The notes under the pieces are model-generated. The model did no database searches. It saw nothing but the letters and a program-made list of their open reading frames with translations, and was not told the DNA's origin. Below are positions 9,134-62,912 of a stretch of DNA of 64,000 nucleotides, in pieces; the stretch's first letter is position 1, and each line of letters begins with the position of its first letter. The stretch lies in the NCBI GenBank assembly GCA_002099625.1, contig GCA_002099625.1_4857.1; one strand, 5' to 3'. This stretch comes from Escherichia coli (GTDB lineage Bacteria; Pseudomonadota; Gammaproteobacteria; Enterobacterales; Enterobacteriaceae). Both the position numbers and the translations under genes were made by a program.

Positions 9134-9220
9134 GGAATGCCCATCCTTTCGTGCGGATAATCCAACCCCAGGCACCACGAATCAACCACAGTGCGATACC
9201 GGTTAGTACGATACCTTCAA

Positions 9221-20750: not shown

Positions 20751-20763
20751 TCGGCCTGCGGGC

Positions 20764-25854: not shown

Positions 25855-25866
25855 GGAGATTTTTGA

Positions 25867-29997: not shown

Positions 29998-29999
29998 GA

Positions 30000-30074
30000 C
30001 GGACTGCCTACGGGCGGGTAGTCCGTAGGTAAACCGCCCTTCCGTTATTGGGAGGGCGGTCTCCGTTTTATTAC
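30000..30074 (+). terminator. tandem hairpins followed by T-run (terminator/attenuator, approx coords)
   Basis: Hairpin 1 CGGACTGCCTACGGGCGGGTAGTCCG; hairpin 2 CCGCCCTTCC-GTTATT-GGGAGGGCGG, then TCTCCGTTTTATTA. Confidence 0.5.
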
Positions 30075-30092
30075 AGATTAGGAGTGTTTGCA

Positions 30093-35276: not shown

Positions 35277-35323
35277 CAGATAGCGCTATGGGGCAAGGAA
35301 GCCCCAATCAAAGGAGTTTGGCA

Positions 35324-45465: not shown

Positions 45466-47643
45466 TTACGATAACGGTATCGTTGGCCGCACCCACGGTT
45501 TAGGGGCAGATTTGGTATACGGATTACATTCCATCATTTTACCGAGATACGCATCGTAATACACGAAGCGATCGACGTAGAACTTCTCCACCGGTGCACT
45601 ACTGGTAGCCGATTTCACCCGGTTGCGTTCCACAGCGAGGCTAATCGCCCCGGTAGGTGCGGGTTTTAGCGTGAACATTACCGCGCGGTTGTAACGCCAA
45701 GTGTCGTGCACAATATCAAACTCCGATACACAGTGTGCCATGATACCAAACAATGTGGTGGCTGGTAAGTTGGCTACAGCATCGCCGTATGGTGTTCCCA
45801 CCAAACCGCCGGGTATGTTTTGCTTTTTGAACAGCGTACCTGAAATAATCGTACCTAAGAACTCCACAACTACAGGTTTGGTTGGGTCGGTGACTTTATC
45901 TATCCCATCCGCACTGGCCAATCGGTTGGCATCTAAATCTGCGAGGTAGTCGAGGAACTCTTGGTACTCGTCGGTGACATTCGGTTTCACCGTTCCGACG
46001 GATACCCAGTTGACGATACTTTTATTCCCACCGACGGCTTCGCCTGCCATCCCAGGGCGAGTCCATGACATCCCGTCTTCACGACCGTAGACATAGACTG
46101 GCGAGCCGGTAGCCGGGGTGTTCCATTGCTCGAACGCTGTATATCGTCCCGGCTGGCCCCAATCCCCACCCGGACCGCCATAGTAGCGACTCTGGTAGCC
46201 GGTAAATTGTGCGACGACTAACTGGGTAGCACCGCCTTTGTCACGGGACCCAGCTAAGCCGTTACGGTTATTGGTGCCGCTGGGCACCGCCGCGCCTGGC
46301 CCGAGAGGCGCACCACCAGCTCCACCGATCTTGGTGGTGCTAAACGCATAGTAGTCGCCCCCACCCCCACCACCGGCGATGGTGCCGTAGTTTTCGATGG
46401 TGACTTTGCCGCGGAAGGTATCGGTAATGTGGATTGCGTCAGCTCCGTCTGCTGATGTGTTCGCAGGCAGAGAATAGACCATACCCGAACCACCACGACC
46501 AAGAATGGTTCCCCGGTTAACGAAGTTCCAAACCACCTCGCCAATTTGCGGCAATTCGTCGATAACGAACGTCGGTTTCAGGTTGCTGTCGCGATAAACG
46601 AAAGCCCCCGCATCTACGGTCACGTTAACAAACAAACGCCCGCACGCCGCATGGTTGGTCAACGTTGTGGCCCAGTAGCTGTCCGAAACTTGCGACGTGG
46701 TTGTGTAATTCAGGTTAAGGGTTTGCTCGTTATCTTGATAGCGTGCCACATTCAACGTGGCACTGCCCATGACTTTGTACGAACCCTCCACGGGTGCCAA
46801 TTGCACTTGTCTTGGCCACTCGCCTGTCAAGTTCTCTACAGGAGCAATTTCGTTTACATCAAAAACACTCCGAATGCCGAGTGTCTCGATGGCCAGAGCA
46901 TCGTGCAGGCTACCGGTGAAATCATCCGGGACGTATGTGGTTTTGCCTGCATATGTCTCGAGTTTGTTACGTGAAAAGAACACATACTTCGTCCCAAACA
47001 TCCCGCTCCCCGGTCTAGCGGTCAAAGCCACGACGCTGTTATACGCAGAGGTTTGGCCTATATCCTCCGGGGACATCGGGGCGCTGACATCGACTTTATC
47101 AAGATCCACGATCCGTTTGGCTGCATTAGAGTAGAAGTTAATCCACTGCTGTTTATTCGCAGCCTTTAGCGTGAGAATGATATTGGTAACAGTGTAGACG
47201 GTGTTGATATCCACGTCGCCGTTTATCACATCTAGCGTTTGGCTGCCGTACCAGACAAGACTTGTCTGTTTCGCCTGGAACGTGATGCGCGCAGCATTGT
47301 TTGTCCAAGTGATAGGCAGGTCTTCAAAGTCGTCGGTTAAAAAGGTAATCCCCAGTAAAGTGTCTAAATGCGGCAACAGTTCGTGAATGGATGCACAAGT
47401 GGGAATGGCATCCAACTTAACCTTAGCGAAATAATCAGCAATATTTTGCTTCGTGACTTGGGCCGTAATTTGACCGTAACTTGAATACCCCGGACCCCCT
47501 GTCAGTGTGACGTCTAGGGTTTTTTCGTCATGATGCTCCACGGACACCAGGCGAACGTTAGCGGGGTCTACTGCTTTGGCGACCGCGTTTTTACGGTTGA
47601 GCGACCGAATCACGGTCGCCACTAAATCAGGAGTGTAGGACAT
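45466..47643 (-). CDS. fibre-like paralog family member, long form with Gly-rich region (725 aa)
   Basis: AAGGTG RBS; family-type N-terminus; Gly-rich segment GGGGGGDYY...GGAGGAPLGPGAAVPSG. Confidence 0.75.
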   Translation of the reverse strand: MSYTPDLVATVIRSLNRKNAVAKAVDPANVRLVSVEHHDEKTLDVTLTGGPGYSSYGQITAQVTKQNIADYFAKVKLDAIPTCASIHELLPHLDTLLGITFLTDDFEDLPITWTNNAARITFQAKQTSLVWYGSQTLDVINGDVDINTVYTVTNIILTLKAANKQQWINFYSNAAKRIVDLDKVDVSAPMSPEDIGQTSAYNSVVALTARPGSGMFGTKYVFFSRNKLETYAGKTTYVPDDFTGSLHDALAIETLGIRSVFDVNEIAPVENLTGEWPRQVQLAPVEGSYKVMGSATLNVARYQDNEQTLNLNYTTTSQVSDSYWATTLTNHAACGRLFVNVTVDAGAFVYRDSNLKPTFVIDELPQIGEVVWNFVNRGTILGRGGSGMVYSLPANTSADGADAIHITDTFRGKVTIENYGTIAGGGGGGDYYAFSTTKIGGAGGAPLGPGAAVPSGTNNRNGLAGSRDKGGATQLVVAQFTGYQSRYYGGPGGDWGQPGRYTAFEQWNTPATGSPVYVYGREDGMSWTRPGMAGEAVGGNKSIVNWVSVGTVKPNVTDEYQEFLDYLADLDANRLASADGIDKVTDPTKPVVVEFLGTIISGTLFKKQNIPGGLVGTPYGDAVANLPATTLFGIMAHCVSEFDIVHDTWRYNRAVMFTLKPAPTGAISLAVERNRVKSATSSAPVEKFYVDRFVYYDAYLGKMMECNPYTKSAPKPWVRPTIPLS

Positions 47644-47657: not shown

Positions 47658-48977
47658 CTATAGCGGTGGATACCAAGGGACCGGGGCGGTTTTGCTATAT
47701 GGACTGTAGACCATATAGCCGCCTTTGCTTGGGTCGTAATAGATGAAATAGTTACAGTAATTCGAGTAAATACTCGTCATTTGTTTGGATTGGTATCCGT
47801 TACGGTATAGTCCCTGGTAAGTAATAGCTGATGTCGTGGTGGTGTAAGCAGTGTGGTACAGTACCCGACGCCGGTTAGCAATACTTTCTTGGAACATTTC
47901 TTCGGTCGGAAACGCGTGTTGCATCAGCCGTCGAATACTCCCGGTACAGTATCGAGTGCCATACGGGGAACCCGTTAAATCATCCGCTGTTTCAGGCGCT
48001 TCCGCCCGAGTCAACACGTACTCGTTTTGATACAACGTGACGCTCATCGAATTTGAGCTGGTTTCCCGGAACCTCATGTAACGCGCATAACGTTCGACGT
48101 CCTCTTCCTGCGCCAAATAGGCCACGTTATTTTTCGGACCAAAGTGCAAGAAGAACGGACGGCGGAGATTACCCATATCCTCAGGTGGCGTCAACTTCAC
48201 GCAGTAATTGTACTCCCCACGCATATCAGGGTCTAAGCCTGGGTTGTTATTGCGTGTAGCGACATACCCATAGAGGTCATACGGGTTATCAGTAGCAGCA
48301 TTACCGATAGTGAACGGGATGCCCGACCATGCCGACAGCGCCGCGATGAACTGGGTCATGTACGAGTTACTGTTTAGTCGCAGCGGGGTACCCATCGGGA
48401 TATTGATTATCTGTTGGGTGTACATGCTCCAGTCGAGTCGATAGACCGTGCTGTAAACATCCATGGGTTCCCAAGCTCCGGTTTCGGTGGTGTGGTACAA
48501 GTCGGCAAAGCTGGGCTCTTCACGAATAAAGCTAATTGGAATGTGACCCGTGAATGCGGGGTTATCCGATTTAATCGCCACCGTCCGATCGCCCGTTGCC
48601 ACAGTGATCATTGCAAACTGGCTGTCAGGATACGTTAAATCGTCAGCAGTAAGCACCAGCCCACAAGCTGCGGAAATCCGATCGATGATGTCGCGGTAGG
48701 ACGTCGCCCGATAAGGTACTTTAACCGGTACGCTGACGCCTTTAAAATACTGCGAAAGGTTTAAGCGGTCGTAGTAGATGTCCATCTTACCGCTGTAACC
48801 ACCACCCTGTAATCCGTTTACCACTATACGGCTGTTGCGGCCATCGCGCAAGGCATTGGTTAAAGGACCTTGTAATAACGCCACGTTGGTTGCGTTGAGT
48901 GGTTTCTTGAGCTGCGGGTTATCACGATTAATCTGATCCCAAACCAGCTGCATGACAGGTTTGTTATAGTTGATCAT
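47658..48977 (-). CDS. fibre-like paralog family member (439 aa)
   Basis: N-terminus MINYNKPVMQLVWDQINRDNPQL...GRNS...YYDRLNLSQYF carries the family NRDNP / YYDRLNL motifs. Confidence 0.75.
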   Translation of the reverse strand: MINYNKPVMQLVWDQINRDNPQLKKPLNATNVALLQGPLTNALRDGRNSRIVVNGLQGGGYSGKMDIYYDRLNLSQYFKGVSVPVKVPYRATSYRDIIDRISAACGLVLTADDLTYPDSQFAMITVATGDRTVAIKSDNPAFTGHIPISFIREEPSFADLYHTTETGAWEPMDVYSTVYRLDWSMYTQQIINIPMGTPLRLNSNSYMTQFIAALSAWSGIPFTIGNAATDNPYDLYGYVATRNNNPGLDPDMRGEYNYCVKLTPPEDMGNLRRPFFLHFGPKNNVAYLAQEEDVERYARYMRFRETSSNSMSVTLYQNEYVLTRAEAPETADDLTGSPYGTRYCTGSIRRLMQHAFPTEEMFQESIANRRRVLYHTAYTTTTSAITYQGLYRNGYQSKQMTSIYSNYCNYFIYYDPSKGGYMVYSPYSKTAPVPWYPPL

Positions 48978-48987: not shown

Positions 48988-49028
48988 TAAAAAAAGAAAA
49001 TAGGCCCCGAAGGGCCTATTTTTAGCTG
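48988..49028 (-). terminator. rho-independent terminator (approx coords)
   Basis: Stem TAGGCCC/GGGCCTA, loop CGAA, flanked by A/T runs. Confidence 0.55.
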
Positions 49029-49051: not shown

Positions 49052-49144
49052 TTAACTCCAGCTGATTCGACCTGCGTGTTGGGGATTATCCCGCTGAATG
49101 AGCCGACACAACAGCTCAAGTGCAGTGGATGAGTAAAACCCCAT
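49052..49144 (-). pseudogene. decayed remnant of a paralog-family gene (N-terminal ~30 codons fused to degenerate 3' end; approx coords)
   Basis: Minus-strand RBS+ATG gives MGFYSSTALELLCRLIQRDNPQHAGRISWS-stop, matching N-termini of the 480/498-aa paralogs; the following ~35 nt resemble the 3' end of gene 59342..60169. Confidence 0.4.
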
Positions 49145-49155: not shown

Positions 49156-50058
49156 TTAGCTAAGAACCAGTTCGATAACGTGGACTACCGACGCGCTATT
49201 GGTCGAAGAGGTGTACGATGGTAAGTCTGGTGAGCCGCTGCGATAATACCACGGGCTGGCGTTGTCATAACCGTTGGCAAACAATGTTGCGGTTGACTCG
49301 GTTGGACTACTGCCGGAGCGCGTCGGTAAGTCGCCAAAACGTCTTACGATGCCCGCGTACCGGAACAAGCTTGCGAACGTGTTGTGCCACTCGCCGTCTT
49401 GAAAATAACCACCGCTGCTTAGGTAGGTGCTGTGCCCATAACTGTAGTCTCCGAGTCGAGGCAAACGTACCACATACTCGTAACCGTCTTTATTAAATGT
49501 CCGACGCTGGTTAGTGGTAGTGACGCTCCGCGGCGGGAAACCGTAGTCATCTGTTCCCCAGGCCAGACCTTGCTGGTATTGTTCGTTCCACGTCGTCCCT
49601 AAACGGGTCACCGTGTCAGGAATGAACAGAATGCGTCCTTTGAAAACGAATTTATGGAACAATGTTGGAGCTTGGTTCCAGGCATTAAAGCCAATTAAAC
49701 CATTCAGCTCGGCATGGTTAAGAATAAATTCTTCGTTTGTCAGTGTGCCAAAGTAGCCACGATGCCAGTCGCCACGAATAAGTTCCTGTGGGCCGGGTCC
49801 TGTCATTGGAAAGTCGCCCTGTACAATCGGCAGCCCCATAACCTTTTCAGTGCCCTTTACCGCCACGATGCGATATTGATACGTTTTATACGCTTCGGTG
49901 GTCTTGTCCTCGTACGTCGTTGTGTTACCTGGTAGTGTTACAATAGGTTCCCCCGGTGCTACTGGGTTAACATTTTGTCTGGGGTTGTCGTAACGATAGA
50001 TTTCAATGGAATCCAAAGTCTGACCTGGCTGTTGTTTCCAGTTTAAGATAATCGACAT
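49156..50058 (-). CDS. module gene A1: fibre-like protein with FN3-like N-terminus (300 aa)
   Basis: GGAG RBS; motif FPMTGPGPQELIRGDWHRGYFGT shared with A2/A3 and the C genes. Confidence 0.75.
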   Translation of the reverse strand: MSIILNWKQQPGQTLDSIEIYRYDNPRQNVNPVAPGEPIVTLPGNTTTYEDKTTEAYKTYQYRIVAVKGTEKVMGLPIVQGDFPMTGPGPQELIRGDWHRGYFGTLTNEEFILNHAELNGLIGFNAWNQAPTLFHKFVFKGRILFIPDTVTRLGTTWNEQYQQGLAWGTDDYGFPPRSVTTTNQRRTFNKDGYEYVVRLPRLGDYSYGHSTYLSSGGYFQDGEWHNTFASLFRYAGIVRRFGDLPTRSGSSPTESTATLFANGYDNASPWYYRSGSPDLPSYTSSTNSASVVHVIELVLS

Positions 50059-50061
50059 GTT

Positions 50062-51060
50062 TTACTCCACTAACTCGATAACGAATGCGTACAAACCGAC
50101 CTTCTCAGCACTGTCAATTAACGTAACTTGGGAGAGGTTACGTTTCGACGTATTGGTTATACTTGAATCGATAGGCGCAGACCCACGAACCAGAACTAAT
50201 CCCGATTCAGGATCACGTTCCTGGCACAAGAAACCTTTGCCTTGGTAAGCGCCACCGCTCCCATAAATGGACGCTGGACTAATATTAGTCCAGTTAGGGA
50301 GCATTTGTTTGTTAGGGATGCAATCAGCGAACGGATAAACAAAGTCGTTATATTCGCAGCGACCATATTCCAAGTCATCATGGTCTGCGTTTCGTAACGA
50401 TTCATCCAACGTCATTACTGTCGGTTCGTCCCCGTCGGTTAAACCGCGCAGCAATCGCATCCGATAGGTGTCGCCTTGCCATTCAAACAACCCACTCTGG
50501 TCAACACCTGCCAGATCCCCACGTCCGTTATCAGGACCAAATCCGTCTACGCCGTATACAAGACCCGCGTTATAAATGTCATTCCACGAGTAAAGTGTAG
50601 AGTTAAATCGTCCGCCGTTGTACATCATGTAGTAAACTTTACCATGACGATAAAACTTGTTCATGATTAGCGTGCCCGTGCCCGATATCCCTGTTAATGC
50701 ACGAAAGCCTGCAGGCAACGCGTCATAGGTCATCTGTTCTTCGAACGGCAACTGCCCCAGAAACGCCAAGTCGTCAGTATCGGAATAGTTAATCTGGTCG
50801 ACGCCACCCACACCACGACGGTTTTTAATGACAATGGATTTTTGTGGACTACCTACGGTACGACCGTTAACAGTTACTGTTAAAAGATACCAGTAACGGG
50901 TGTTAAGAATAACGGTTTCGTCCGTCCATTCCGTTTCGCCATTACTTAAAGTTGCAATAGGGGCTGGTAATGCGGCTGTATTTATTTTAGCCGTGCCCCG
51001 ATAAATGTTAACAATTGAACCTGCCGGATTTTCATTTTTCCAGCGTAGTGTGAAAGCCAT
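50062..51060 (-). CDS. module gene B1: fibre-like protein (332 aa)
   Basis: AAGGAG RBS; N-terminus MAFTLRWKNENPAGSIVNIYRGT paralogous to B2/B3. Confidence 0.75.
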   Translation of the reverse strand: MAFTLRWKNENPAGSIVNIYRGTAKINTAALPAPIATLSNGETEWTDETVILNTRYWYLLTVTVNGRTVGSPQKSIVIKNRRGVGGVDQINYSDTDDLAFLGQLPFEEQMTYDALPAGFRALTGISGTGTLIMNKFYRHGKVYYMMYNGGRFNSTLYSWNDIYNAGLVYGVDGFGPDNGRGDLAGVDQSGLFEWQGDTYRMRLLRGLTDGDEPTVMTLDESLRNADHDDLEYGRCEYNDFVYPFADCIPNKQMLPNWTNISPASIYGSGGAYQGKGFLCQERDPESGLVLVRGSAPIDSSITNTSKRNLSQVTLIDSAEKVGLYAFVIELVE

Positions 51061-51070
51061 CTGTTACTCC

Positions 51071-52513
51071 TTAGAAGCCGTTCAACTCACCGTTCGCGGT
51101 TGCTAAATCTGTTTTAAGTGGAGGTTTTGCCTGAGTAGGCGGTAGTGGACGCGGTGCGTCGACGTGTGGTTCAAGTACAACCATCGGCCTAACTGTACCT
51201 ACGCTGTTCGACACTGTCGATAACGGCAGCGCAGTATCGACGTTTGGTTCACCCACCACAATCGGGCTGATAGGTTCTTCCACCTGTTCCGCAGTTGTTG
51301 CTAGAGGTCTCGGCGCATCTGTTGTCGCAACCACGACTGCAAGAGGGCGAATGCTATCAGGTTGTGGTGATGGTACATTAGGAATAACCCTAACGCGCCA
51401 CACAACATCCCCTTCCACATCAGCTAAAGGTAAGACGATGTCGTCCTTATTGATTTCCTCTAAAACAGGCCACCAGTAAGTGGTATCTGTAAGGGTTACC
51501 CATTCAACTGAGCCACCGCGCATATTGCAACGTTGTACTTTAACAGGGTTACCCCCGGTTAACAGTTGTTGCGTGAAGAAGACGGTGGTTCTGGTTAACG
51601 TGGTGTCATTTGCCCAGTCGCCGCCCGTAGAACCGTCACCGAGTTGTGAAATAAGCCACAACGGTGTGGCCTTTGATAAATCAGGGCTAACCGGAACGGA
51701 GACGCGGTAATAATGCGTCTTGTTATTCTCAGTTTTCGTGACAATCAAAGCCTGGTCAACAGGTTCGATACCGTCTGGATACGGACCAGCGTCACCTGTA
51801 CCGAAAATGGCACCCGCTTGATAAAGGGCCGTCCAGGTTGCTGTTAACGTTCCGGTAGTCGGTAGATAAACAATCTTACCATCCTTGAAAAATTTCAACC
51901 ATTCGAAAGTCATTTTCGTTGGGGCAACATCAGGACGAATTAGGTTGTTTAGTTCAGCAAAGGTAAATAACTCTTGCTGAGAAACGTGGCCGAAGTATCC
52001 GTTTGTGCTGTCCCCTGCCAACAAATATTTATTGCCTGGCCCAGAATCTGGATAGTAGCCCACGGCTTCATTCAAATAATCGACCGGGATATAGCCGCGA
52101 TAGCATACGCTATTATACACGGTTAAATTAATACGTGTTGGCGTTGCCAGCGATTTGATAGGCGCGTCTACCGACTGTACACTGCTATCAGATAACCAAA
52201 CACCGTATAAATCGCGTAGAGCTGGGAGAAGATCCCGCACGGTCTTGGCCGTTTGTGGTACGTAGATGCGCGGAGCTATTTTAAATAGATCTGATAATGT
52301 TAAACGGTCGTAATAAACCGTGCACTCCCCAGAGAAACCTTTACCGGGTTTTCCTACCAACGTAATTACCGTGTTACGACCATTCTTAGTGGTCTCGGCA
52401 GGAATACCCCTCACCCCAATCGAATCAGCGCTGATTCTTCCTGCGAGTTCAGGGTTATCCCTTACGACTTGCTGGCAGAGTAATTCCAGTTCGGGTGCGC
52501 TATACAATCCCAT
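51071..52513 (-). CDS. module gene C1: fibre-like family protein with C-terminal NGELNGF (480 aa)
   Basis: AGGAGA RBS; N-terminus MGLYSAPELELLCQQVVRDNPELAG...YYDRLTLSDLF; PRPL repeats near C-terminus. Confidence 0.75.
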   Translation of the reverse strand: MGLYSAPELELLCQQVVRDNPELAGRISADSIGVRGIPAETTKNGRNTVITLVGKPGKGFSGECTVYYDRLTLSDLFKIAPRIYVPQTAKTVRDLLPALRDLYGVWLSDSSVQSVDAPIKSLATPTRINLTVYNSVCYRGYIPVDYLNEAVGYYPDSGPGNKYLLAGDSTNGYFGHVSQQELFTFAELNNLIRPDVAPTKMTFEWLKFFKDGKIVYLPTTGTLTATWTALYQAGAIFGTGDAGPYPDGIEPVDQALIVTKTENNKTHYYRVSVPVSPDLSKATPLWLISQLGDGSTGGDWANDTTLTRTTVFFTQQLLTGGNPVKVQRCNMRGGSVEWVTLTDTTYWWPVLEEINKDDIVLPLADVEGDVVWRVRVIPNVPSPQPDSIRPLAVVVATTDAPRPLATTAEQVEEPISPIVVGEPNVDTALPLSTVSNSVGTVRPMVVLEPHVDAPRPLPPTQAKPPLKTDLATANGELNGF

Positions 52514-52524
52514 GAAGTCTCCTG

Positions 52525-53424
52525 TTAAGGCAGAACGAGTTCAAGTACCGCAATGGAGCGTATTGTAGTGGTACCGTAGTTACTCCACGACGGCGACTCA
52601 GGGTAAGGTGGACGGTTGTACCACTGACTGGACGTGTTATTCATAGCCGCAAAGAATGCAGATTGTTGGGCAGTAACCGAATCGATTGGACCGACCGGAA
52701 GGTCGTCAAAGCGCGGAAACTGCCCACTGTAGTTGTACAGGCGCGCGAAGGTGTTAAACCACTCACCGTCGAGATACAACTCAGTGTTACCGCTTCCAAC
52801 GTAAGACGTCCAGTATTTGTAGTCGAACAAATACGGCAAGCGCACCACGTATTCGTAACCGTTCTTCGCCACCGTGCGGCGTTGGTTACGTGCAGTAGCC
52901 CAGCCCGGTACATATCCATTGCCATCCTGGCCGTACATCATCCCCTGGTTATAAATGAACTGCGGGCTAGCGTTTATTATCGAGTTATCGGACATAAACA
53001 GAATACGGTTTTTGTAAATGAATTTATGCCAGGCACCAACGGCGGAACTGAACATATTCACCACGAGGCCGTTCAGTTCCGTGTTAGTGAATAACTCTGC
53101 CGGCGTTACTGTTCCAAAGTATCCAGCGTGCCAGTCGCCGTATAACAGCTTCTGGGGGCCAGGCCCGGTGTCTAAAAAGAACCCTTGGGCGGTAGGGGTG
53201 TTGAAGACACGCTCACCGTCTTTAACCGCAGCTATCCAATAACGGTAAGTGGTGTTGTTTTCCACAGCGTTGTCTTCGTACGATGTAGCGTCACCCGGAA
53301 GGGTTGCCAGAGGCGTTCCCGGTGCATTAACATCAATGGTGGCGTTGCCAGGCGTCTTGCGATAGATTTCGATGTTATCGAGCGCCTGTGGCTTCCGTTG
53401 TGCAAAGTTTAATGTAATAGGCAT
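52525..53424 (-). CDS. module gene A2 (299 aa from Met13 of track ORF)
   Basis: GAGGA RBS before internal ATG; LDTGPGPQKLLYGDWHAGYFGT. Confidence 0.75.
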   Translation of the reverse strand: MPITLNFAQRKPQALDNIEIYRKTPGNATIDVNAPGTPLATLPGDATSYEDNAVENNTTYRYWIAAVKDGERVFNTPTAQGFFLDTGPGPQKLLYGDWHAGYFGTVTPAELFTNTELNGLVVNMFSSAVGAWHKFIYKNRILFMSDNSIINASPQFIYNQGMMYGQDGNGYVPGWATARNQRRTVAKNGYEYVVRLPYLFDYKYWTSYVGSGNTELYLDGEWFNTFARLYNYSGQFPRFDDLPVGPIDSVTAQQSAFFAAMNNTSSQWYNRPPYPESPSWSNYGTTTIRSIAVLELVLP

Positions 53425-53426
53425 GA

Positions 53427-54416
53427 TTAATCCTCGATAAGCTCGATTACTGGAATCCAAATACCGCCCACGGTCGCACCAGGGACATGTTGTATACGCT
53501 GGAGGTTATCCACGGTATCAGTGGAATCCGCCGCCGCCCATCCGCGCGTCAGCCCCAACTTACTGTCTGGGTCAAACTCCTGACAATGCGCCCCACGGCC
53601 TGCCACCAGCGATCCGTTTCCGAATATGCTGGAGTTCGACCACTTTATCAGGGACATCACTTTTTTCTTTTCTGGGAACCAGCTACTTATCCCATAGATG
53701 AGTCGGTTGTATTCGCTATCGGCAGTATACGGTGACGCGTCATGGAGTTTACCGTTCCACTGTGCGTCGAGTGTCATGACCGGGCTTTCACTGTCGAGCG
53801 TTAACCCGCGCAGCAGGCGCATCCGATAGCGGTCACCCAACCACGTAAACTCCCCAGCCTGGTCAACGTCAGGTAAATCACCATGACCGCCTTCCGGACC
53901 AGGTCCCGCCACACCGTACAGCAAACCCGCGTTATAAATCGCATCACGGCTATACAGCGTGTTGCCGTTCACACGAAGACCACTAAACAGATACAGAATT
54001 TTACCGTCTAGCTGGAACTTCATCAAGCCCGGCTTAACAGTTGGGTCGTATCCAGAAAGGGCCACAAACCCTGGCGGATAATCACCCGCGCTAGGTAATT
54101 CACCGTACGCCACGTACCCGTAATACGCAAAGCGGTCATCACCGTACAGTGGAGCCACGATGCCGATACCGCGACGGTTCTGAATCAGAATTGATTTCTG
54201 CGGACTGAACAGTGTCCGACTTCCCACTGTCACGGTGGTCATGTAGTAATACGTTGTCCCCAGTATCGCTGTTCGGTCAGTATACTCAGTTTCCCCGTTA
54301 GTGAACGTTGCCAGGGGTTCAGGTAATGCCGTACGCACCAGAGGTTTGGTGTCGCGGTACAGCTTCACGGTCGAAGCCCCAGGGTTATTGTTCGTCCAAC
54401 GAATTGTAAAAGCCAT
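53427..54416 (-). CDS. module gene B2 (329 aa)
   Basis: Paralog of B1/B3 (MAFTIRWTNNNPGASTVKLYRDT). Confidence 0.75.
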   Translation of the reverse strand: MAFTIRWTNNNPGASTVKLYRDTKPLVRTALPEPLATFTNGETEYTDRTAILGTTYYYMTTVTVGSRTLFSPQKSILIQNRRGIGIVAPLYGDDRFAYYGYVAYGELPSAGDYPPGFVALSGYDPTVKPGLMKFQLDGKILYLFSGLRVNGNTLYSRDAIYNAGLLYGVAGPGPEGGHGDLPDVDQAGEFTWLGDRYRMRLLRGLTLDSESPVMTLDAQWNGKLHDASPYTADSEYNRLIYGISSWFPEKKKVMSLIKWSNSSIFGNGSLVAGRGAHCQEFDPDSKLGLTRGWAAADSTDTVDNLQRIQHVPGATVGGIWIPVIELIED

Positions 54417-54428
54417 TGTCGTTACCTC

Positions 54429-55925
54429 TTATTGGAATCCATCCAACTCACCGTTAGTATCGCCCAGAGTAATTTTTGAAGGTTGGGCGATTTGGTCAGT
54501 CGTGAGAATAATCGGTCTAATCTTAACGCTAGCCATACCTGTTACCGCGACGGAATATGCACGTTCATCATTGTCCGTCGTGGCAAGCAGAGGACGTGGT
54601 GAGTCTGATGACGCTTCCCGCACCCAGGCAGGGGTGGCAGTTTCGGTGTTGTCGGTGTTGAAAACTAACGGACGTGGATTCGCTGCGGCGGAGGTTTCCG
54701 TAATAGGCACCACACGAAGCGATTCATTTTGGTCGATGTCCGTCAGAGTAACCACGGACGGTGCCCATGTTAGTTCTGCACCTTCGTCAATCAACGGCAC
54801 AGGTTCATTGGCAATATCAAACATCTCCAGGATTGGCCAAAAGCCAGAAGAGGTGTAGATGTAGGTGTTTGAACGATAGCTCCCACTGATAGACTGGTAA
54901 TACGCTTGGTCGGCACCGAACTGGTGTCGTAACCACACGTAATCCAGGAAGTTAGCATCAGTCGTGCTAAGAGTTCCCCATTCCCCATATACGTTCACCG
55001 ACCCCAATTTGCTGGTCAGTGACAGGATAGAGGTGATTGACGGCGGTTTACTCCAATCAGGCGCGGCGGCGTTCTCGGTGTAATACGGGATAGACATTCT
55101 GAAATAATGCGTTCCTTCATCATCCCGTTTTACCATGTATTTCAACTGTTCAACATCGACAGGTGTGTAAGTCGACTTCGGGCGAGGTCCTGCGTCTCCG
55201 GAATCAAATATTGCACCCTTGTTGTACAGGTCTGCCCAGGTAACGTTGCAAATCGCACGGGTCGGAACAAACACTACCGCCCCATTCAGAAAGAATTTGA
55301 GCCACTTGATAGCGTAGCGGTTAGGCCAGTTGGTGCCGTTATAAAGGGCATACACCATTTCATCAGATGTGAATAACTCTTCCGCGCTTACCAGCCCAAA
55401 GAATCCGTATAACTCATTACCAGCCATTAATCCTTTTGGCCCAGGACCCGACTTCGGATACATCGCAATCGGTTCGTAAACATAGGTCATCTTGCATGAC
55501 CCGGTATAGCACAAGGAGTTAGCGTGCGCCGTCAGAGTTACAGTTTCCGGCGTAGCGTATTTCATTAATGCAACGTTTGGACTGGTGATATCACTCGCGG
55601 TTAAGTTCAACCCATTCAATTCATTGAACGCCGGTAACGCTTCCGCATGGGTTTGTGCGCTACGTGGAATACTCACCATATTCGGGCCAGACTTAAATAG
55701 ACTGGCCAGATTCAACCGGTCGTAATATACCGTTATTTCCCCAGCAAATCCTTTACCGGGTTTTCCTACCAACGTAATCTGTGTGTTTCGTCCGTTAACG
55801 TTTCTCGCAACAGGAACACCCCTGACCCCAACGGAGTCAGCGGTGATTTTTCCTGCTAAACTGGGATTGTCACGCACAATTTGTTGGCAGAGCAGTTCCA
55901 TTGAAGGTTCTGTATACAACCCCAT
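54429..55925 (-). CDS. module gene C2 with C-terminal NGELDGF (498 aa)
   Basis: ACGGAG RBS; N-terminus MGLYTEPSMELLCQQIVRDNPSLAG; SPRPL repeats. Confidence 0.75.
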   Translation of the reverse strand: MGLYTEPSMELLCQQIVRDNPSLAGKITADSVGVRGVPVARNVNGRNTQITLVGKPGKGFAGEITVYYDRLNLASLFKSGPNMVSIPRSAQTHAEALPAFNELNGLNLTASDITSPNVALMKYATPETVTLTAHANSLCYTGSCKMTYVYEPIAMYPKSGPGPKGLMAGNELYGFFGLVSAEELFTSDEMVYALYNGTNWPNRYAIKWLKFFLNGAVVFVPTRAICNVTWADLYNKGAIFDSGDAGPRPKSTYTPVDVEQLKYMVKRDDEGTHYFRMSIPYYTENAAAPDWSKPPSITSILSLTSKLGSVNVYGEWGTLSTTDANFLDYVWLRHQFGADQAYYQSISGSYRSNTYIYTSSGFWPILEMFDIANEPVPLIDEGAELTWAPSVVTLTDIDQNESLRVVPITETSAAANPRPLVFNTDNTETATPAWVREASSDSPRPLLATTDNDERAYSVAVTGMASVKIRPIILTTDQIAQPSKITLGDTNGELDGFQ

Positions 55926-55938
55926 GGCTTTTACTCCG

Positions 55939-56862
55939 TTACGGTAAGACTAATTCGAAAGCAAAGAAAATTGTTACAGCAACACCCACTCCTGATGAGT
56001 TGGTAATCCCCGCCGGGGCATAACCGTACGCATAAGCGAAAAGGTTGCTGTTCCATAAAGGAGCTAGCACGGCTGCACCTGTTTCGTTAGGCTGGGCAGT
56101 TGAACCTTGCGGCGGTATTGAATCGATGGCACCAAGACCAATAGGCGGGAACTGTGCACCGACAGGATACAAACGGCCCATTGTGTTTCGCCATTCGCCG
56201 TTGTTGTAATCCTGTCCTGAGAGAGCCGCGTCGTACGGGACTGCGTAAGGTAATCGGATACGGTACGTACGACCATCCTTCGTGACCTTACAATCTTGTT
56301 TAGTCGCCGTGGCTCCCTGCGGGACTATGATCCCGTTATCATCGGTCCCGTACATCATCCCGTACTGATACGCCATCTGTACCGAGTTGGTTTTCGAATG
56401 CATCGTCGCTGGGAAGAAGACAATTCTCCCACGGAAAATAAACTTGTGCCATTCCTGAGGGTCGTAGGTAAACATGTTTCCCTGCTGCGCAGTTAACATG
56501 AGTTTTAACTCGGCAGTATTAAAGAACTCTGTATTCGGTACTGTACCGAAATAACCTGAAGCCCAGTCACCTCGCAAAATAGTTTGCGGTCCCGGTCCAG
56601 TGTCTGGATAGAACCCTTGCGTAATCGGATTGCCGATAAGTCGTTCACTGTCTTTTACAGCAGCTACCCAATAACGATAAGTTGTATTCTTCGTCAGAGT
56701 ATCAATATCGTCTACGAACTCTACCGCGTTGCCTGATAAAGTTGCGTGGGGCGTGCCTGGATTGTAAACGTCGATTGTTGCGTTCCAACCTTCCTTGCGG
56801 TAGATTTCAATCGCGGTAAGACCTTTGCTGGCTTGGGACGGCCAGCTTAACCGTATAGTCAT
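55939..56862 (-). CDS. module gene A3 (307 aa)
   Basis: AAGGGG RBS; YPDTGPGPQTILRGDWASGYFGT. Confidence 0.75.
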   Translation of the reverse strand: MTIRLSWPSQASKGLTAIEIYRKEGWNATIDVYNPGTPHATLSGNAVEFVDDIDTLTKNTTYRYWVAAVKDSERLIGNPITQGFYPDTGPGPQTILRGDWASGYFGTVPNTEFFNTAELKLMLTAQQGNMFTYDPQEWHKFIFRGRIVFFPATMHSKTNSVQMAYQYGMMYGTDDNGIIVPQGATATKQDCKVTKDGRTYRIRLPYAVPYDAALSGQDYNNGEWRNTMGRLYPVGAQFPPIGLGAIDSIPPQGSTAQPNETGAAVLAPLWNSNLFAYAYGYAPAGITNSSGVGVAVTIFFAFELVLP

Positions 56863-56871
56863 GACTGCCCC

Positions 56872-57870
56872 TTACTCGACCAGTTCAAAGATAGGGTAGT
56901 AACGCCCTTTCGTGGTGGGTGATAAATAGTTTATACGCTGAATCGCTGATACGGGTGTTCCACCGGCATTGTTAAAGATACCACGATGGAGCACACGGTC
57001 TTCCGCGGTGTCGTGTTCCATACAGAGAACTCCGGCACCGAAATACGTTGCCGAGGTTCCCAAATTAGCCTGTCCCAGATAAGTATAACCGATTGTTGCC
57101 CAGTTAGCCCAACGTTGTTTCTTCGGCACCTCGTTAACCATCGTGTAAAGTAAATCGTTATACTCGCACGGGTTGGTTAGAGAAGCGATTTCATCGTGGG
57201 TTTTCCCATTGTAGTCAGCCACGAAAGGATACGCAGGAGACTCGCTAGACGTCGTCAGGCCGCGAGGAAGACGCATAATGTACGTATCCCCTTTGTGGAC
57301 TATCTTAGCGTCTTGTGGAGTGGCCGGTAGCGTTCCATGGCCGTTCTCTGGGCCAGCATCGCCTGTACCATAGACTAAACCAGCTTGATAGAGGGAAGCC
57401 CAGTCCACAGGCGTATTCGGGAACTGCGACGTATTAGATAGCATGTAATAGATCTTCCCGTTTCGGGTAAATTTATACAACGCCACACGATCGGTTAATA
57501 GATTAGGGAACATCGCCAAAAATGCAGGTGGCATTTGCGACGGAAGCCATTGTTCGTCGTAAGGAACCGCACCCATAAACCCTAAACGGTCGTTACCGTT
57601 TAGAATAGTCATTGGGCCAATCCCACGCTTTATCTCAATGGTGTATTTCTGGCTAGACGATGCCACTGTTTTACCGTTGGCGGTTACCGTCAGAAGGTAA
57701 TAATAGGTTGCGCCTGGTGCGGCGGTGGTATCACGCCATTCTGTCTCGCCATTTGAGAGCGTTGCAATCGGTTCAGGCAAAGCGCTCGGTGTGATATCTT
57801 TAACGTCACGGTAGATTTTTACTACCGTAGAGATTACGTTTGGATTTTTCCAACGCAAAGTAAAAGACAT
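56872..57870 (-). CDS. module gene B3 (332 aa)
   Basis: Paralog of B1/B2 (MSFTLRWKNPNVISTVVKIYRDV). Confidence 0.75.
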   Translation of the reverse strand: MSFTLRWKNPNVISTVVKIYRDVKDITPSALPEPIATLSNGETEWRDTTAAPGATYYYLLTVTANGKTVASSSQKYTIEIKRGIGPMTILNGNDRLGFMGAVPYDEQWLPSQMPPAFLAMFPNLLTDRVALYKFTRNGKIYYMLSNTSQFPNTPVDWASLYQAGLVYGTGDAGPENGHGTLPATPQDAKIVHKGDTYIMRLPRGLTTSSESPAYPFVADYNGKTHDEIASLTNPCEYNDLLYTMVNEVPKKQRWANWATIGYTYLGQANLGTSATYFGAGVLCMEHDTAEDRVLHRGIFNNAGGTPVSAIQRINYLSPTTKGRYYPIFELVE

Positions 57871-57881
57871 GGATGATACCT

Positions 57882-59294
57882 CTACTTAAAGCCGTTCAGT
57901 TCACCGTTAAGAGACGTTAACGATGTCTTGTCGGGTGGCGTATACATTTCAGCGGTAGCCGCAATGGGTTGGAAGTCGACTGTCTTCGGCAGCATTAAAG
58001 CAGGCGGATGCAGTGCGAAACTGTTTTCTGAAGTAACAACTACCGGTTCGAAATCGGTAGTATCTGGATTACCGAGCACCAACGGCTTGAGACTAAACGT
58101 GTTTTCTGCGGACACGCTGCACGGTTGGAGACTGTAATCTACCGCACCATGGATATCTTCTAAACCCAAGGTAACTGTGGACTTATCCACCAACTCTAGC
58201 ACCGGGAACCAGTAGTAGTTGCCTGCGCTCGATGATTTTCCTAAGTTTGTCCAACTGGCTCCAGACAACGTCGCCATGCGATGATTGGCGACGTTGGTGT
58301 TCAGTGTATCTTTCAATAAACAGAACAGCGTCCAGTAACTGTTAATCGGTTTGTCCCACGTTCCATTATACAGAAAGTTGAACATCTCAAACTCACTACC
58401 TGCTAACTCAGCGGCAGTTGGGGTGCCGCTGACGTATGGGTCTTTCCCGGCACTAGGTAGACGAACACGGAAGTAAAACCTTTTGTTGTCTGCGCCTGTA
58501 AAGCTAATGATGCGTCCCTGGTTAACGGGCGTCGCCGCAGGGTATTTACCATTATCGTCTGTTCCGTAAACGAGTCCGTTTGTATATAACGTATTCCAGG
58601 AGATGGAGCTAGCGACAGGACTAATCGGGAGGTAAATAACCCTACCCTGGTAAAAGAACTTGTACCAACCTTCGGCACCAGAATGTACCGGTGGTAACGC
58701 ACCGGCCGATATAGTGGCATTAAGAAGTTGAGAGTGTGTAAACAACTCTGCAATTGTGGTTGTTCCGAAATAACCCGCGATAGTGTTACCTTGCAGCAAC
58801 GTTTTAGGGCCAGGTCCAGAATCGGGGTAAATTGCACCACTCGGGACGGTATAACGTATCGTTAAGCTGCCTGTAAACGCAGGGCAATTACCTGAGATAT
58901 TTAATTTCAACGTCTGCGGCGAAGCGCTCGGTTTAGGTAAACTTGCGTCAGGTGACTGCAAATCAGAAGCAACTAATGTAAGCCCCAATGCGTCGTTTAT
59001 TGCAGGTAGCGCGTCTCGTACCGTTAAGACTGTATCTTTGATAGCCACAGTCGGCACAAAATTAAATAAAGTGGCCAGGTTAATCCGGTCGTAGTACACG
59101 GTAACATTACCTTGTACACCTGTCCCTGGATACCCGGTGAAAACAGCTTTGGTGTTACGTTGGTTTAACGTAACTGAAGTTGGGCCGCTGGTTAAAGCAG
59201 CGATAGCCGGCGTCAGCTTAACAACTAAATCAGGATTATCCCGATTGACTTGGTCGTATACAAGCAGTGCCGACTCCTTCGAGTAAAATAGCAT
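57882..59294 (-). CDS. module gene C3 with C-terminal NGELNGF (470 aa)
   Basis: CGGAG RBS; N-terminus ...VYDQVNRDNPDL...YYDRINLATLF. Confidence 0.75.
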   Translation of the reverse strand: MLFYSKESALLVYDQVNRDNPDLVVKLTPAIAALTSGPTSVTLNQRNTKAVFTGYPGTGVQGNVTVYYDRINLATLFNFVPTVAIKDTVLTVRDALPAINDALGLTLVASDLQSPDASLPKPSASPQTLKLNISGNCPAFTGSLTIRYTVPSGAIYPDSGPGPKTLLQGNTIAGYFGTTTIAELFTHSQLLNATISAGALPPVHSGAEGWYKFFYQGRVIYLPISPVASSISWNTLYTNGLVYGTDDNGKYPAATPVNQGRIISFTGADNKRFYFRVRLPSAGKDPYVSGTPTAAELAGSEFEMFNFLYNGTWDKPINSYWTLFCLLKDTLNTNVANHRMATLSGASWTNLGKSSSAGNYYWFPVLELVDKSTVTLGLEDIHGAVDYSLQPCSVSAENTFSLKPLVLGNPDTTDFEPVVVTSENSFALHPPALMLPKTVDFQPIAATAEMYTPPDKTSLTSLNGELNGFK

Positions 59295-59310: not shown

Positions 59311-59340
59311 CAAAAGATGGGGCTCCGAAGAGCCCCTACA
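59311..59340 (-). terminator. possible terminator hairpin (approx coords)
   Basis: Stem GGGGCTC/GAGCCCC, loop CGAA; weak T tract on minus strand. Confidence 0.3.
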
Positions 59341-59341: not shown

Positions 59342-60169
59342 TTAGCTGTTATAGTGGTAGTACGCCACGCCTTTCACGCCTTCCTCATCGATACCCGTTT
59401 GGATAACCACGCGGTCGTACGATTTGTTAGCGAACTGTGCGGTGGAAGTCGGCACATCCTGAACGGTGTTACTGTTCAGTGGCCCCGCGTAGTTCGGAAT
59501 ACCCAGGTCATCCAACACCTTACGCAAACCAGCCCACTGCGGTAGGCCAGAAGCATCTACTGTCAGTAGGTTTTTATACGCGGTAAAGTCAATACCGTAC
59601 GTCAACAAATCAATACACTTCTTACCGAGAGACGGTGAAATAGGCTCTTGAATCGCATTCAAGACATCTGATTTCACCGAAGTGTCTAGTACCGGTAAAC
59701 CACGGTTATAACGCAACGTCGCAGAACCGATATAAGCCGGAGATGTCGATAGCGCTGCAATGGTCTGTGTATTGGTGTAATTTGGGGTATTGGCACCCGC
59801 CAGTGAGTAGTTTTGGATATCGATTGCGGAGAAGTTTACTCCGTAGGTATCCAAGAGCACCGAAAAGGCTGAGTGGAGGTTGGGAGCGTCAAACGTGACG
59901 AACTGCGCCTGGACGGAAGGACCCCACGGCAATAACCGCGCTAAGTTCACACGGTCGTAGTAAACGGTGATTGCGTCTCGAAATCCGGAACCCTGAATAC
60001 CGCGCAAGCGTGCCGACGTATTGCGGTTGTTGGAAGCTGCATTAACGGGAACCTGTGTCACTTTCTCCACGTAGCAGTTTGCCGGCGACGCTTTAATAGG
60101 TAGGTTTGGGTTATCCCGGTTAATGAGGTCAAAGACCAACTCGTTTGACGGCTTAGCATAGTTGATCAT
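59342..60169 (-). CDS. fibre-like paralog family, short form (275 aa from Met2)
   Basis: GAGGT RBS; N-terminus MINYAKPSNELVFDLINRDNPNL...YYDRVNLARLL; C-terminus ...YYHYNS. Confidence 0.75.
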   Translation of the reverse strand: MINYAKPSNELVFDLINRDNPNLPIKASPANCYVEKVTQVPVNAASNNRNTSARLRGIQGSGFRDAITVYYDRVNLARLLPWGPSVQAQFVTFDAPNLHSAFSVLLDTYGVNFSAIDIQNYSLAGANTPNYTNTQTIAALSTSPAYIGSATLRYNRGLPVLDTSVKSDVLNAIQEPISPSLGKKCIDLLTYGIDFTAYKNLLTVDASGLPQWAGLRKVLDDLGIPNYAGPLNSNTVQDVPTSTAQFANKSYDRVVIQTGIDEEGVKGVAYYHYNS

Positions 60170-60172
60170 CAA

Positions 60173-61060
60173 TTATACCTCGCTTGGATCGTCCAGATCG
60201 TTGAACTGGAGATACAACGTTCCGACGATGGTGGTACAAGTAACAGGCAGTTTCAACACCAGCGCATACTTGTACTTCGCGTTTGTCGGCATTGCAACAG
60301 GGTCATTCAAACCAACGCTGACAACCTCCGCGCCCGCCAAACCGTAGGAAGCGGAGGTGGTCGCTACCCATGCAGTACCCGTGATATCTTTCAGCAGGTT
60401 AACCATATCCGTTAACGGCTGTCCGGACAGAATACCCGGCACGTATGCCAGCAACTCATCACGGTATTTGGTGAAGTTGTACGGGTAGGAATAAACCTCT
60501 GCAATGACCGCAGTAACGGTTTCGGAACCCATCTGACCGTTCGGGTATTTCAGACCGGTCAGGACGTTAGTGGTGACTGCAGAGACTAACGACTCATCGC
60601 CTTTCACGACTTTAAATGTCGCCTGTCCAACCCAACCGATAGACTCAGGATGTGCAACAACACGCACAGTTCCTTCGGTCTTATCACCGTTCCATTCGAT
60701 ATCTGCGTCCTGCAGGTCAGCTTCTTCCAGAACAAAACCGTAACGTTGGTTCAGTCCAGGAATGGCCGCATACAAGGTTTCGTTGGATGGGCCGATCGCC
60801 AACGTGTCACCAATCAGCACTAACAAGTCTTCGATTTTCATGCGGTTGTAGAAGACATTTTTCTTACCCGACCAGGTAGAGCCCGTTACCCCATCTGCCG
60901 TAATTTTAATTTGCGTGTTACGGTTAGTCAGCGTTTCCTTCTCCGTACCACGGATGTCCTTTGGCGAGGACCAGATGATGTCAGTCATCTTAACAGCAAG
61001 CGAGTTCTGTGCGTTCACTGCTGCCAACAGGACGTCTTTAGAAGGTTGATAAATAGCCAT
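60173..61060 (-). CDS. fibre-like paralog family, short form (295 aa)
   Basis: AGGAA RBS; family N-terminus MAIYQPSKDVLLAAVNAQN; C-terminus ...LYLQFNDL. Confidence 0.75.
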   Translation of the reverse strand: MAIYQPSKDVLLAAVNAQNSLAVKMTDIIWSSPKDIRGTEKETLTNRNTQIKITADGVTGSTWSGKKNVFYNRMKIEDLLVLIGDTLAIGPSNETLYAAIPGLNQRYGFVLEEADLQDADIEWNGDKTEGTVRVVAHPESIGWVGQATFKVVKGDESLVSAVTTNVLTGLKYPNGQMGSETVTAVIAEVYSYPYNFTKYRDELLAYVPGILSGQPLTDMVNLLKDITGTAWVATTSASYGLAGAEVVSVGLNDPVAMPTNAKYKYALVLKLPVTCTTIVGTLYLQFNDLDDPSEV

Positions 61061-61070
61061 TCGCTAATTC

Positions 61071-61910: not shown

Positions 61911-61979
61911 AATAGCCTCCTCGGCCAAAAAAGAAAGGAGTAGCCAGGAGGAGGATTTCCTCCTCCCAGCGAGGCCTAA

Positions 61980-62891: not shown

Positions 62892-62912
62892 TCTTACTTC
62901 CTTTACTCAGGA

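Follow-up and report, generated by a model that had tools for sequence, protein, structure and literature searches.

A 64,000-nucleotide (nt) stretch of DNA from an Escherichia coli assembly (GCA_002099625.1, contig GCA_002099625.1_4857.1; hereafter the window, and its source the window phage) carries, at positions 49156-59294 (10.1 kb), an array of nine minus-strand genes that is an old tandem triplication of one three-gene unit, C-B-A. We lean, if only slightly, towards reading this array as a set of exchangeable cassettes of lectin-like adhesins that would be mounted on DUF7941 filaments and would serve attachment to the host. Each cassette encodes one protein with a DUF7941 anchor (C) and two proteins with an N-terminal FN3 domain (B and A), and all nine proteins share a core that resembles C-type lectins in fold. 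We infer binding to the host surface because of these lectin-like and FN3 folds, because a sister protein with a Gp38-type adhesin domain occupies an interchangeable slot, because the tip of one protein has recombined and because the copy number of the cassette varies between phages.

A scan for open reading frames (ORFs) recovered all nine genes, in the order C3-B3-A3, C2-B2-A2, C1-B1-A1, exactly where a first-pass annotation, made from the sequence alone, had placed three ordered triplets of consecutive minus-strand genes (Table 1). Over its full length, the array region matches the DNA of the Salmonella jumbo phages SaP7, SEGD1, the SPFM series and SPN3US (genus Seoulvirus) at 97.4-97.6% identity. 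Against SPN3US, the coverage is 100% and the identity 97.4%, with the same gene order and gene lengths, and gene by gene the nucleotide identity to SPN3US_0145-0153 ranges from 90.3 to 99.3%. The nine genes are the same as those of the published SPN3US 'Paralog family B' from gp145 to gp153, whose records (SPN3US_0145 to 0153) are labelled 'putative virion structural protein 12-19' or hypothetical. For A2, a longer ORF (52525-53460, with a TTG start 36 nt upstream) was ruled out by SPN3US mass spectrometry, which shows removal of Met before Pro and thus sets the start at the downstream ATG (MPITL...). Two records, those of Proteus phage 7 (MT679221) and MET_P1_082_240 (OQ383623), attach the label 'glycosyl hydrolase' to six of the nine. 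We rejected this function, as no hydrolase family or fold was found and the label presumably falls on exactly the six FN3-bearing genes; it probably stems from FN3 similarity, because FN3 domains are common in glycosidases.

Table 1. Features of the nine-gene array and its surroundings (window positions; aa, amino acids)
Feature	Position	Strand	Description
gp160 homologue	42047-42574	-	175 aa; short DUF7941 N-terminal piece and C-terminal motif (...KTDLSTTNGELDGFV) as in C1-C3
gp155 homologue	45466-47643	-	725 aa; DUF7941 N-half and Pfam GP38 'phage tail fibre adhesin' domain
gp154 homologue	47658-48977	-	439 aa; DUF7941 N-half and C-terminal domain that also ends gp155
Terminator-like hairpin	48997-49022	-	11-bp stem, then T run; just past array and stub
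Stub of fourth C gene	49052-49144	-	30 codons and stop (MGFYSSTALELLCRLIQRDNPQHAGRISWS*); CAGGAG ribosome-binding motif as at C1
A1	49156-50058	-	300 aa; gp153 orthologue; FN3 and core
B1	50062-51060	-	332 aa; gp152 orthologue; FN3 and core
C1	51071-52513	-	480 aa; gp151 orthologue; DUF7941 N-half, core, tail
A2	52525-53424	-	299 aa; gp150 orthologue; FN3 and core; start is ATG at 53424
B2	53427-54416	-	329 aa; gp149 orthologue; FN3 and core
C2	54429-55925	-	498 aa; gp148 orthologue; DUF7941 N-half, core, tail
A3	55939-56862	-	307 aa; gp147 orthologue; FN3 1-83, lectin-like core 84-307
Recombinant A3 C-terminal tip	55942-56157	-	codons 236-307 (last 72)
B3	56872-57870	-	332 aa; gp146 orthologue; FN3 1-78, lectin-like core 78-332
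C3	57882-59294	-	470 aa; gp145 orthologue; DUF7941 N-half 1-150, core 155-375, disordered tail 379-470
GC-rich hairpin	59319-59336	-	in 47-nt gap between gp144 homologue and C3; upstream array boundary
Five complete or almost complete DUF7941 paralogues (homologues of gp144-gp140)	59342-63758	-	homologues of phiKZ gp127

We characterized the relationships within the array by all-against-all BLASTP. Within classes, the identities are 40-47% among the A proteins (E 1e-50 to 5e-79), 38-47% among the B proteins (E 1e-69 to 2e-81) and 29-38% among the C proteins (E 3e-59 to 4e-100); between classes they are 25-36% over 70-240 residues (E 1e-4 to 3e-20). These values lie far above noise, and like members are paralogous but diverged, as the first-pass annotation had it. 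A core of about 220 residues is common to all nine proteins, and the 12 invariant columns of the nine-core alignment (G6, G8, G23, E29, K57, F58, Y82, G85, G94, P98, Q106 and E220) reproduce the motif that had been noticed as a block shared by A, B and C. The three modules measure 3356, 3401 and 3358 nt and retain collinear patches of DNA with 68-86% identity at matching offsets, while a shuffled control yields none. Together with the strong paralogy, these lengths and patches show that the array arose by tandem triplication a long time ago. The paralogy reaches past the array, since the gp154 and gp155 homologues, the five DUF7941 genes upstream and the gp160 homologue share the C proteins' N-terminal domain.

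The C proteins begin differently from the A and B proteins. The Pfam family DUF7941 (PF25613; gathering cut-off 27 bits, 276 profile positions) is matched by C1, C2 and C3 with 78.8, 105.1 and 110.6 bits, only at profile positions 1-153, the N-terminal half of about 150 residues. A1-3 and B1-3 have no DUF7941 match at E ≤ 1, and they are linked to the DUF7941 genes only via the core that they share with C. In structure models, the A and B proteins start with an FN3 domain, a seven-strand beta-sandwich that can be superposed on FN3 structures. The 'same N-termini' of the first-pass annotation thus need one correction, in that A and B have this domain in common and C has another. No Pfam family covers A, B or the shared core.

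At their other end, the C proteins carry tails that finish in the motif K-x-x-L-x-x-x-N-G-E-L-x-G-F. The C3 tail has two T-x-D-F-x-P repeats and ends in ...SLNGELNGFK, the C2 tail has three [NS]PRPL-type repeats and ends in ...TNGELDGFQ, and the C1 tail has two DAPRPL repeats and ends in ...ANGELNGF. The gp160 homologue is the only other protein in the window that ends in this motif (there KTDLSTTNGELDGF, as in C1-C3), and it aligns with the C tails at 40% identity over 48 residues (E 9e-5). In its make-up, this homologue appears to be a DUF7941 protein reduced to N-domain and linker, much like gp23 of phage Goslar. From their sequences, the C proteins in turn look like cargo-bearing filament subunits.

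The cargo is the shared core, which in structure models is similar in fold to C-type lectin-like domain (CTLD) structures. The model of C3 (predicted local distance difference test score, pLDDT, 77) has a globular N-domain, the core and a disordered tail with pLDDT below 50, and about 40 of the 60 structural matches listed for it are proteins with a C-type lectin fold. The match scores include 6.8 for Lcl-CTD, 6.3 for TvpA and 6.2 for the Bdellovibrio Bd2740 fibre tip, and the other matches of this fold include FGE/EgtB, NK-cell lectins, intimin, invasin, Mtd and TaqVP; sequence homology to Mtd, TvpA, TaqVP, Bd2740, Lcl or intimin/invasin is not detectable. The hallmarks of animal CTLDs (disulfide cysteines and the Ca2+/sugar motif EPN or QPD) are not among the 12 invariant columns of the nine cores, and the core therefore resembles the fold rather than the canonical Ca-dependent lectins. 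We read the core as a C-type-lectin-like binding fold, on moderate scores and predicted models.

In the AlphaFold2 models, A3 and C3 are compact, with two or three domains and a disordered tail; neither a shaft nor a beta-helix, a coiled coil or any other fibrous segment is seen. The 'fibre apparatus' that the first-pass annotation had suggested is consequently not one of classical fibres. Comparison of the array with itself revealed no near-identical pair of template and variable repeats; a reverse transcriptase was not searched for in the rest of the genome.

We surveyed related phages with domain profiles built from the window proteins. The ordered triplet [DUF7941-N + core][FN3 + core][FN3 + core] recurs in phages of Cronobacter, Erwinia, Salmonella and E. 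coli in one to four copies: one cassette in Cronobacter phage CR5, two in E. coli phage EC001, three in SPN3US, Erwinia phage phiEaH2 and the window phage, and four in Erwinia phage ChrisDB, while Salmonella phage JN03 has two intact cassettes and a dead one. In all of these phages the C-B-A order is strict and the gene counts are 1:1:1, and at least seven genera or lineages keep to this order and count. A single triplet with a first gene that has no DUF7941 part occurs both in Salmonella phage SA002 and in Ralstonia phage RSL2, and the Pseudomonas phage PhiPA3 has one such headless first gene followed by three FN3-core genes. One of these three, an intact ORF of about 320 aa, lies at about 9001-9960 (+) of the PhiPA3 locus, between genes 237 and 236, and is unannotated in RefSeq.

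When A, B and C are each placed in a rough neighbour-joining tree, the three trees largely agree. Module 3 of the window clusters with the cassette that comes first in ChrisDB and in phiEaH2, module 1 clusters with the second ChrisDB cassette, and module 2 stands alone. The single cassette of CR5 is the exception, as its C falls with the fourth-cassette type and its B and A fall with another type. The congruence indicates that duplication and divergence have mostly affected entire cassettes. The cassette long predates the window phage and behaves as a unit.

The core itself is widespread. A profile search of 1.84 billion representative proteins found it in 1836 clusters, 1228 of them at E ≤ 1e-10. 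Most of these clusters have the same three architectures, some contain several cores in one chain, and some fuse the core to Laminin_G_3, Kelch or glycine-rich (Gly_rich_2) domains. One protein (P0095) has exactly three cores in a single chain of 694 residues, and its contig is phiKZ-like, the gene adjoining those for RNA polymerase beta and DNA polymerase. The core also occurs singly or doubly in phiKZ gp83 and in 201phi2-1 gp452, gp456 and gp442. In phiKZ gp83 (locus 20347-21861, -), labelled as a head protein in its record, the lectin-like core is N-terminal, and after it come repeats that by eye resemble Kelch. A search of the 2026 phiKZ structural atlas for gp83 found no mention, and the consulted passages of the 2024 capsid paper do not list it among the capsid proteins; the phiKZ transposon-mutagenesis preprint has nothing on gp83 or gp127, and the phiKZ literature searched gives no location for gp83.

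Closely related phages differ in their subsets of cassettes, and the window itself preserves a trace of such turnover. In the 178-nt gap after A1 lies the stub of a fourth C gene, which is 60% identical to the N-terminus of C1 and distinct from it in DNA. The same stub is present in SPN3US, where it is unannotated. JN03 retains the whole of the fourth C gene (504 aa), with a B (326 aa) and an A (298 aa) of its own behind it, and the orthologues of this cassette are those that come last in ChrisDB and in phiEaH2. In the window phage, the gp154 and gp155 homologues have replaced the fourth cassette, with breakpoints at window 49074 to 45430 versus JN03 locus 3824 to 479. As judged from these sequences, the array had four cassettes earlier and has three now.

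Both occupants of the slot carry the DUF7941 N-half. The gp155 homologue bears a GP38 domain at aa 373-553 (nt 45985-46527; 66.2 bits versus a cut-off of 25, E 4.8e-18) and matches PHROG tail-fibre families, and it shares with the gp154 homologue a C-terminal domain of about 110 residues (28% identity, E 2e-7, PHROG 6409). This shared domain finishes in a Pro/Trp-rich peptide.

Gains and replacements involve whole cassettes, and the only partial loss observed is module 1 of JN03, a dead remnant in which the first 125 or so codons of C1, with an in-frame stop among them, are joined to the last 40 or so codons of A1. The remnant lies at JN03 locus 3895-4392 and is unannotated in the record. EC001 has lost modules 1 and 0, with a junction at C1 codon 6 on 9 nt of microhomology, and Lh1B likewise is a phage with two cassettes by nature.

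Compared to SPN3US, all nine genes of the window phage are under purifying selection (ratios of nonsynonymous to synonymous divergence, dN/dS, of 0.11-0.59). The C-terminal tip of A3 differs from SPN3US with a synonymous divergence (dS) of 1.8 and a dN/dS of 0.09, while dS is 0.02-0.09 in the other array genes. These two values led us to reject local positive selection in A3, and they point to import of the tip by recombination rather than to adaptive point substitution.

The gaps between the array genes are only 2-13 nt and contain Shine-Dalgarno-like motifs. On sequence grounds, this spacing, the ribosome-binding motifs and the hairpins that bound the array fit one co-translated unit. A scan for sigma-70 promoters found 15 versus 22 expected and was uninformative, as this phage uses its own RNA polymerases.

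Data on the SPN3US orthologues suggest that the nine proteins belong to the virion. All of gp145-gp153 were detected in purified virions (PMC10052503), in keeping with the virion role that the first-pass annotation had supposed. From these data, we computed spectral counts per kDa of 3-12 for the nine proteins (37-slice experiment), compared to 6.6 for the 12-copy portal, 96 for gp141 and 22 for gp160, a high-abundance SPN3US virion protein (PMC10052503). The nine proteins, with counts near those of the portal, are therefore low-copy.

The anchor domain has been characterized in relatives. In phage Goslar, the DUF7941 proteins gp22 and gp23 are present in hundreds to thousands of copies per virion, and purified gp22 forms filaments without any virion; AlphaFold predicts that the linker docks head to tail onto the N-domain of the next DUF7941 protein, and some members of the family bear carbohydrate-binding, glycosidase or leucine-rich repeat (LRR) cargo (bioRxiv 10.64898/2026.04.21.720040). 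In the view of its authors, host recognition would be served by a 'DUF7941 fibre cloud' that is anchored at the baseplate. We infer from this family that C is incorporated into filaments.

According to the mechanism that we propose, the nine genes would be expressed as one late unit with tight translational coupling, and C would be built into head-to-tail DUF7941 filaments of the virion. Its N-terminal domain would accept, and its C-terminal peptide would donate, the contact that is used by the abundant gp141- and gp160-type paralogues. B and A, having no anchor, would ride on C through core-core contacts, in the simplest form as one C:B:A pseudo-trimeric knob per cassette. The knobs would bind glycans or proteins of the host surface reversibly, with a specificity that differs per cassette type, and the array would thereby tune adsorption and host range. 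The 'arsenal of alternative specificities' of the first-pass annotation gains from the lectin-like and FN3 folds, the filament anchor, the cassette turnover, the A3 tip and the Gp38 neighbour. Its broader reading as receptor-binding or host-range determinants fares less evenly: the modules look like binding modules, the proteins are not classical fibres, the SPN3US orthologues co-purify with heads, and the binding is putative.

Several observations weigh against the adhesin-cassette reading. Two independent proteomes of tailless SPN3US particles place all nine proteins with the head, and retention on heads at the wild-type level fits badly with the baseplate-anchored filaments of phiKZ and Goslar. 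Within a cassette, the spectral counts per kDa differ by up to 2.6-fold, which is not a clean 1:1:1, and fused relatives have 2, 3, 4, 5 or 8 cores, so three is not universal. Ligand binding and a host-range role, finally, are putative for all nine proteins.

The unequal counts and the variable number of fused cores favour the possibility that the nine proteins are independent adhesin-like monomers or homo-oligomers, with a gene order that is the frozen history of duplication and with no C:B:A complex. Mtd, Lcl-CTD and the collectins, as structural analogues, are homotrimers, and they count on the same side. However, A and B have no recognisable anchor and are yet found in virions, and they would therefore have to be recruited by another protein, of which the cognate C is the simplest. 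Independent proteins would also leave unexplained a 1:1:1 count and order kept in at least seven genera or lineages, the turnover of whole cassettes, the largely congruent trees of A, B and C (CR5 excepted) and the fusion of three cores into a single chain. We hold independence to be rather unlikely. A C:B:A heterotrimer is our tentative alternative, somewhat short of an even prospect; we suggest it because of the 1:1:1 gene counts, the largely congruent trees, the gain and replacement of whole cassettes, the tight spacing and the three-core fusion.

Where in the virion such cassettes would sit is disputed. In SPN3US, Paralog family B (gp83, 138-154, 161 and 237) was described as head proteins of unassigned function, because its members persisted in a tailless mutant (Thomas 2016, PMC5105663; Ali 2017, PMC5694885). 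In a tail-tube amber mutant, gp145-gp153 were found in all wild-type and head-only replicates, with normalised head/wild-type ratios of 1.06-1.67 (Table S2), while the fibre/baseplate proteins gp168-170 fell more than 10-fold in the same head samples (Scheuch 2023, PMC10052503). The heads had been purified by step and buoyant-density caesium chloride (CsCl) gradients, and none of the nine proteins was cleaved by the prohead protease (PMC10052503). SPN3US gp155, which is outside paralogue family B, was likewise assigned to the head by mass spectrometry.

In contrast, structural work on relatives points to the outer baseplate. In the cryo-electron microscopy (cryo-EM) analysis of phiKZ, the N-domain of gp127 is modelled where the gp139 band of the outer baseplate ends, and gp127 acts there as a structural end-cap (Xiao 2026, PMC13250141). 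At the same phiKZ site, the Goslar preprint fits a dimer of gp126 and gp127, and it proposes that association with the baseplate is universal (bioRxiv 10.64898/2026.04.21.720040). The words 'SPN3US' and 'tailless' do not occur in the text of that preprint, and the SPN3US head data appear not to be discussed in it. The conflict is between proteomics of 97%-identical orthologues and structural work on relatives. Either the filaments of Seoulviruses are joined to the capsid or to the neck, or heads pick up self-assembling filaments while they are being purified.

If the latter, the cassettes would belong to the tail apparatus, on DUF7941 filaments anchored only at the outer baseplate, and the head signal would come from sticky filaments that co-purify. 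The modelled position of the phiKZ gp127 N-domain, the Goslar dimer fit and the formation of gp22 filaments without a virion all agree with such a site, and the window encodes homologues of the phiKZ baseplate-periphery proteins gp157, gp130 and gp131/135. Against it, family B is kept at 1.06-1.67 after CsCl purification while gp168-170 are lost, and, judging from buoyant densities, free protein filaments should not band with DNA-filled heads. We consider an exclusive baseplate location doubtful. The fuller picture that the head data allow is one in which lectin-like three-subunit knobs and a Gp38-type adhesin would sit on DUF7941 filaments at the head or neck of Seoulviruses, as a capsid-borne 'fishing net' that makes the first host contact and is reshuffled by gain, loss and replacement of whole cassettes; in all its parts together, this is more speculative still, and we regard it as unlikely to hold as it stands.

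A location inside the head is improbable. The nine proteins would then enter the head along with the DNA and might be ejected into the cell, in line with the tentative 'Head ejection?' that the SPN3US authors offered for abundant members of family B, with the co-purification of all nine orthologues with DNA-filled tailless heads of two different mutants, with the many internal proteins of Chimallivirus heads and with capsid reconstructions, which have not located the nine. However, binding domains exposed at a surface are where FN3 and lectin-like folds are typically met, the prohead protease leaves all nine unprocessed, in contrast to the well-established internal proteins gp53, gp54 and gp47, and the anchor family forms external filaments in Goslar and is on the baseplate in phiKZ. 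Whole cassettes are, moreover, dispensable and exchangeable between near-identical phages, and a sister protein with the same anchor bears a Gp38 adhesin domain.

We give equally little credence to a purely structural role without a host ligand, in which the proteins would bundle, cap or space DUF7941 filaments or serve as capsid cement: most invariant residues of the core are Gly, Pro or aromatic and thus fold-determining, and phiKZ gp127 is a structural end-cap, but a fixed part should not vary between one and four copies or be deleted in viable close relatives, and neither recombination of a tip nor interchange with a Gp38-adhesin protein would be expected of it.

Among the known systems close to the adhesin-cassette reading is the Goslar 'fibre cloud' (gp22 and gp23, with cargo proteins gp86, gp92 and gp161), where an N-domain is likewise combined with a disordered linker. 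Both phages pair abundant short DUF7941 paralogues with rare cargo-bearing ones, the gp160 homologue of the window resembling Goslar gp23 and the gp141-type protein resembling Goslar gp22. Unlike in Goslar, the cargo of C is a lectin-like core between the N-domain and the terminal peptide; two DUF7941-free FN3-core partner genes accompany it, the whole is present in several tandem copies, and heads rather than tails are what the SPN3US orthologues co-purify with. In phiKZ there are two or three DUF7941 proteins (gp126/gp127) and no C-B-A cassette, and its gp83 fuses the core to repeats. Mtd, TvpA, TaqVP, Bd2740, Lcl and intimin/invasin are similar in their C-type lectin fold, but they share no detectable sequence homology with the window proteins, and no signature of a diversity-generating retroelement (DGR) is present in the array. 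The array varies by paralogy, cassette exchange and tip recombination, and three different chains are proposed rather than a homotrimer.

The tailspikes TSP1-4 of CBA120, gp63.1/gp66 of G7C and the branched fibres of PhiKp24 set binding modules side by side on a conserved N-terminal attachment domain and vary between relatives, as the cassettes do. They are baseplate tailspikes or fibres with beta-helix enzymes, whereas the window genes encode small, globular, shaftless subunits on a filament-forming platform. If the SPN3US head assignment is right, there is also a likeness to T4 Hoc and the phi29 head fibres (gp8.5), capsid binding proteins of Ig/FN3 type that are dispensable for infectivity. 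T4 Hoc is a single high-copy protein at hexamer centres, whereas the nine proteins are low-copy, multi-subunit and multi-allelic.

Part of this is already known: the genes are a published paralogue family, and the filament role of the anchor domain comes from a preprint. The accessible portions of the SPN3US family B papers (PMC5105663, PMC5694885 and PMC10052503) describe no three-gene cassette, no folds, no A or B proteins without DUF7941 and no turnover, and the words fibronectin, lectin, subfamily and Ig-like are not found in them. In the literature on these genes, to the extent that its text was available, we likewise did not find the cassette as a conserved mobile unit, its architecture of lectin-like and FN3 domains, the relic of the fourth cassette and the Gp38-type protein that replaced it, or an explicit statement of the contradiction between head and baseplate.

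Elsewhere in the window, the five full-length or near full-length DUF7941 paralogues include sequence homologues of phiKZ gp127 (E 4e-10). The window also contains homologues of the phiKZ outer-baseplate proteins gp157 (1369-2748, +; 30% identity, E 1e-53), gp130 (20811-22073, -) and gp131/gp135 (22141-36526, +). The last are fibre paralogues in three ORFs of 1237-1742 aa, the counterparts of paralogue family C in SPN3US. Directly upstream of the DUF7941 paralogue array of phiEaH2, and in the same orientation, lies a gene (locus 1513-3330) with the annotation exopolysaccharide (EPS) depolymerase, which hints that functions directed at host polysaccharides cluster with this array.

The Chimalliviridae, or phiKZ-like jumbo phages, serve as leading models of phage cell biology and as candidates for therapy, and their first recognition of the host is poorly understood. 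About 20 virion proteins of SPN3US family B have been without an assigned function since 2016, and nine of them now receive a reading at the level of domains. These nine form a conserved three-gene unit that relatives multiply, delete and swap, and that is tied to the DUF7941 filament proposal of 2026. If the adhesin reading is true, three adjacent paralogues would provide an example of a heterotrimeric lectin knob, and the cassette content would be a predictor of host range that can be read from the genome and a handle for engineering.

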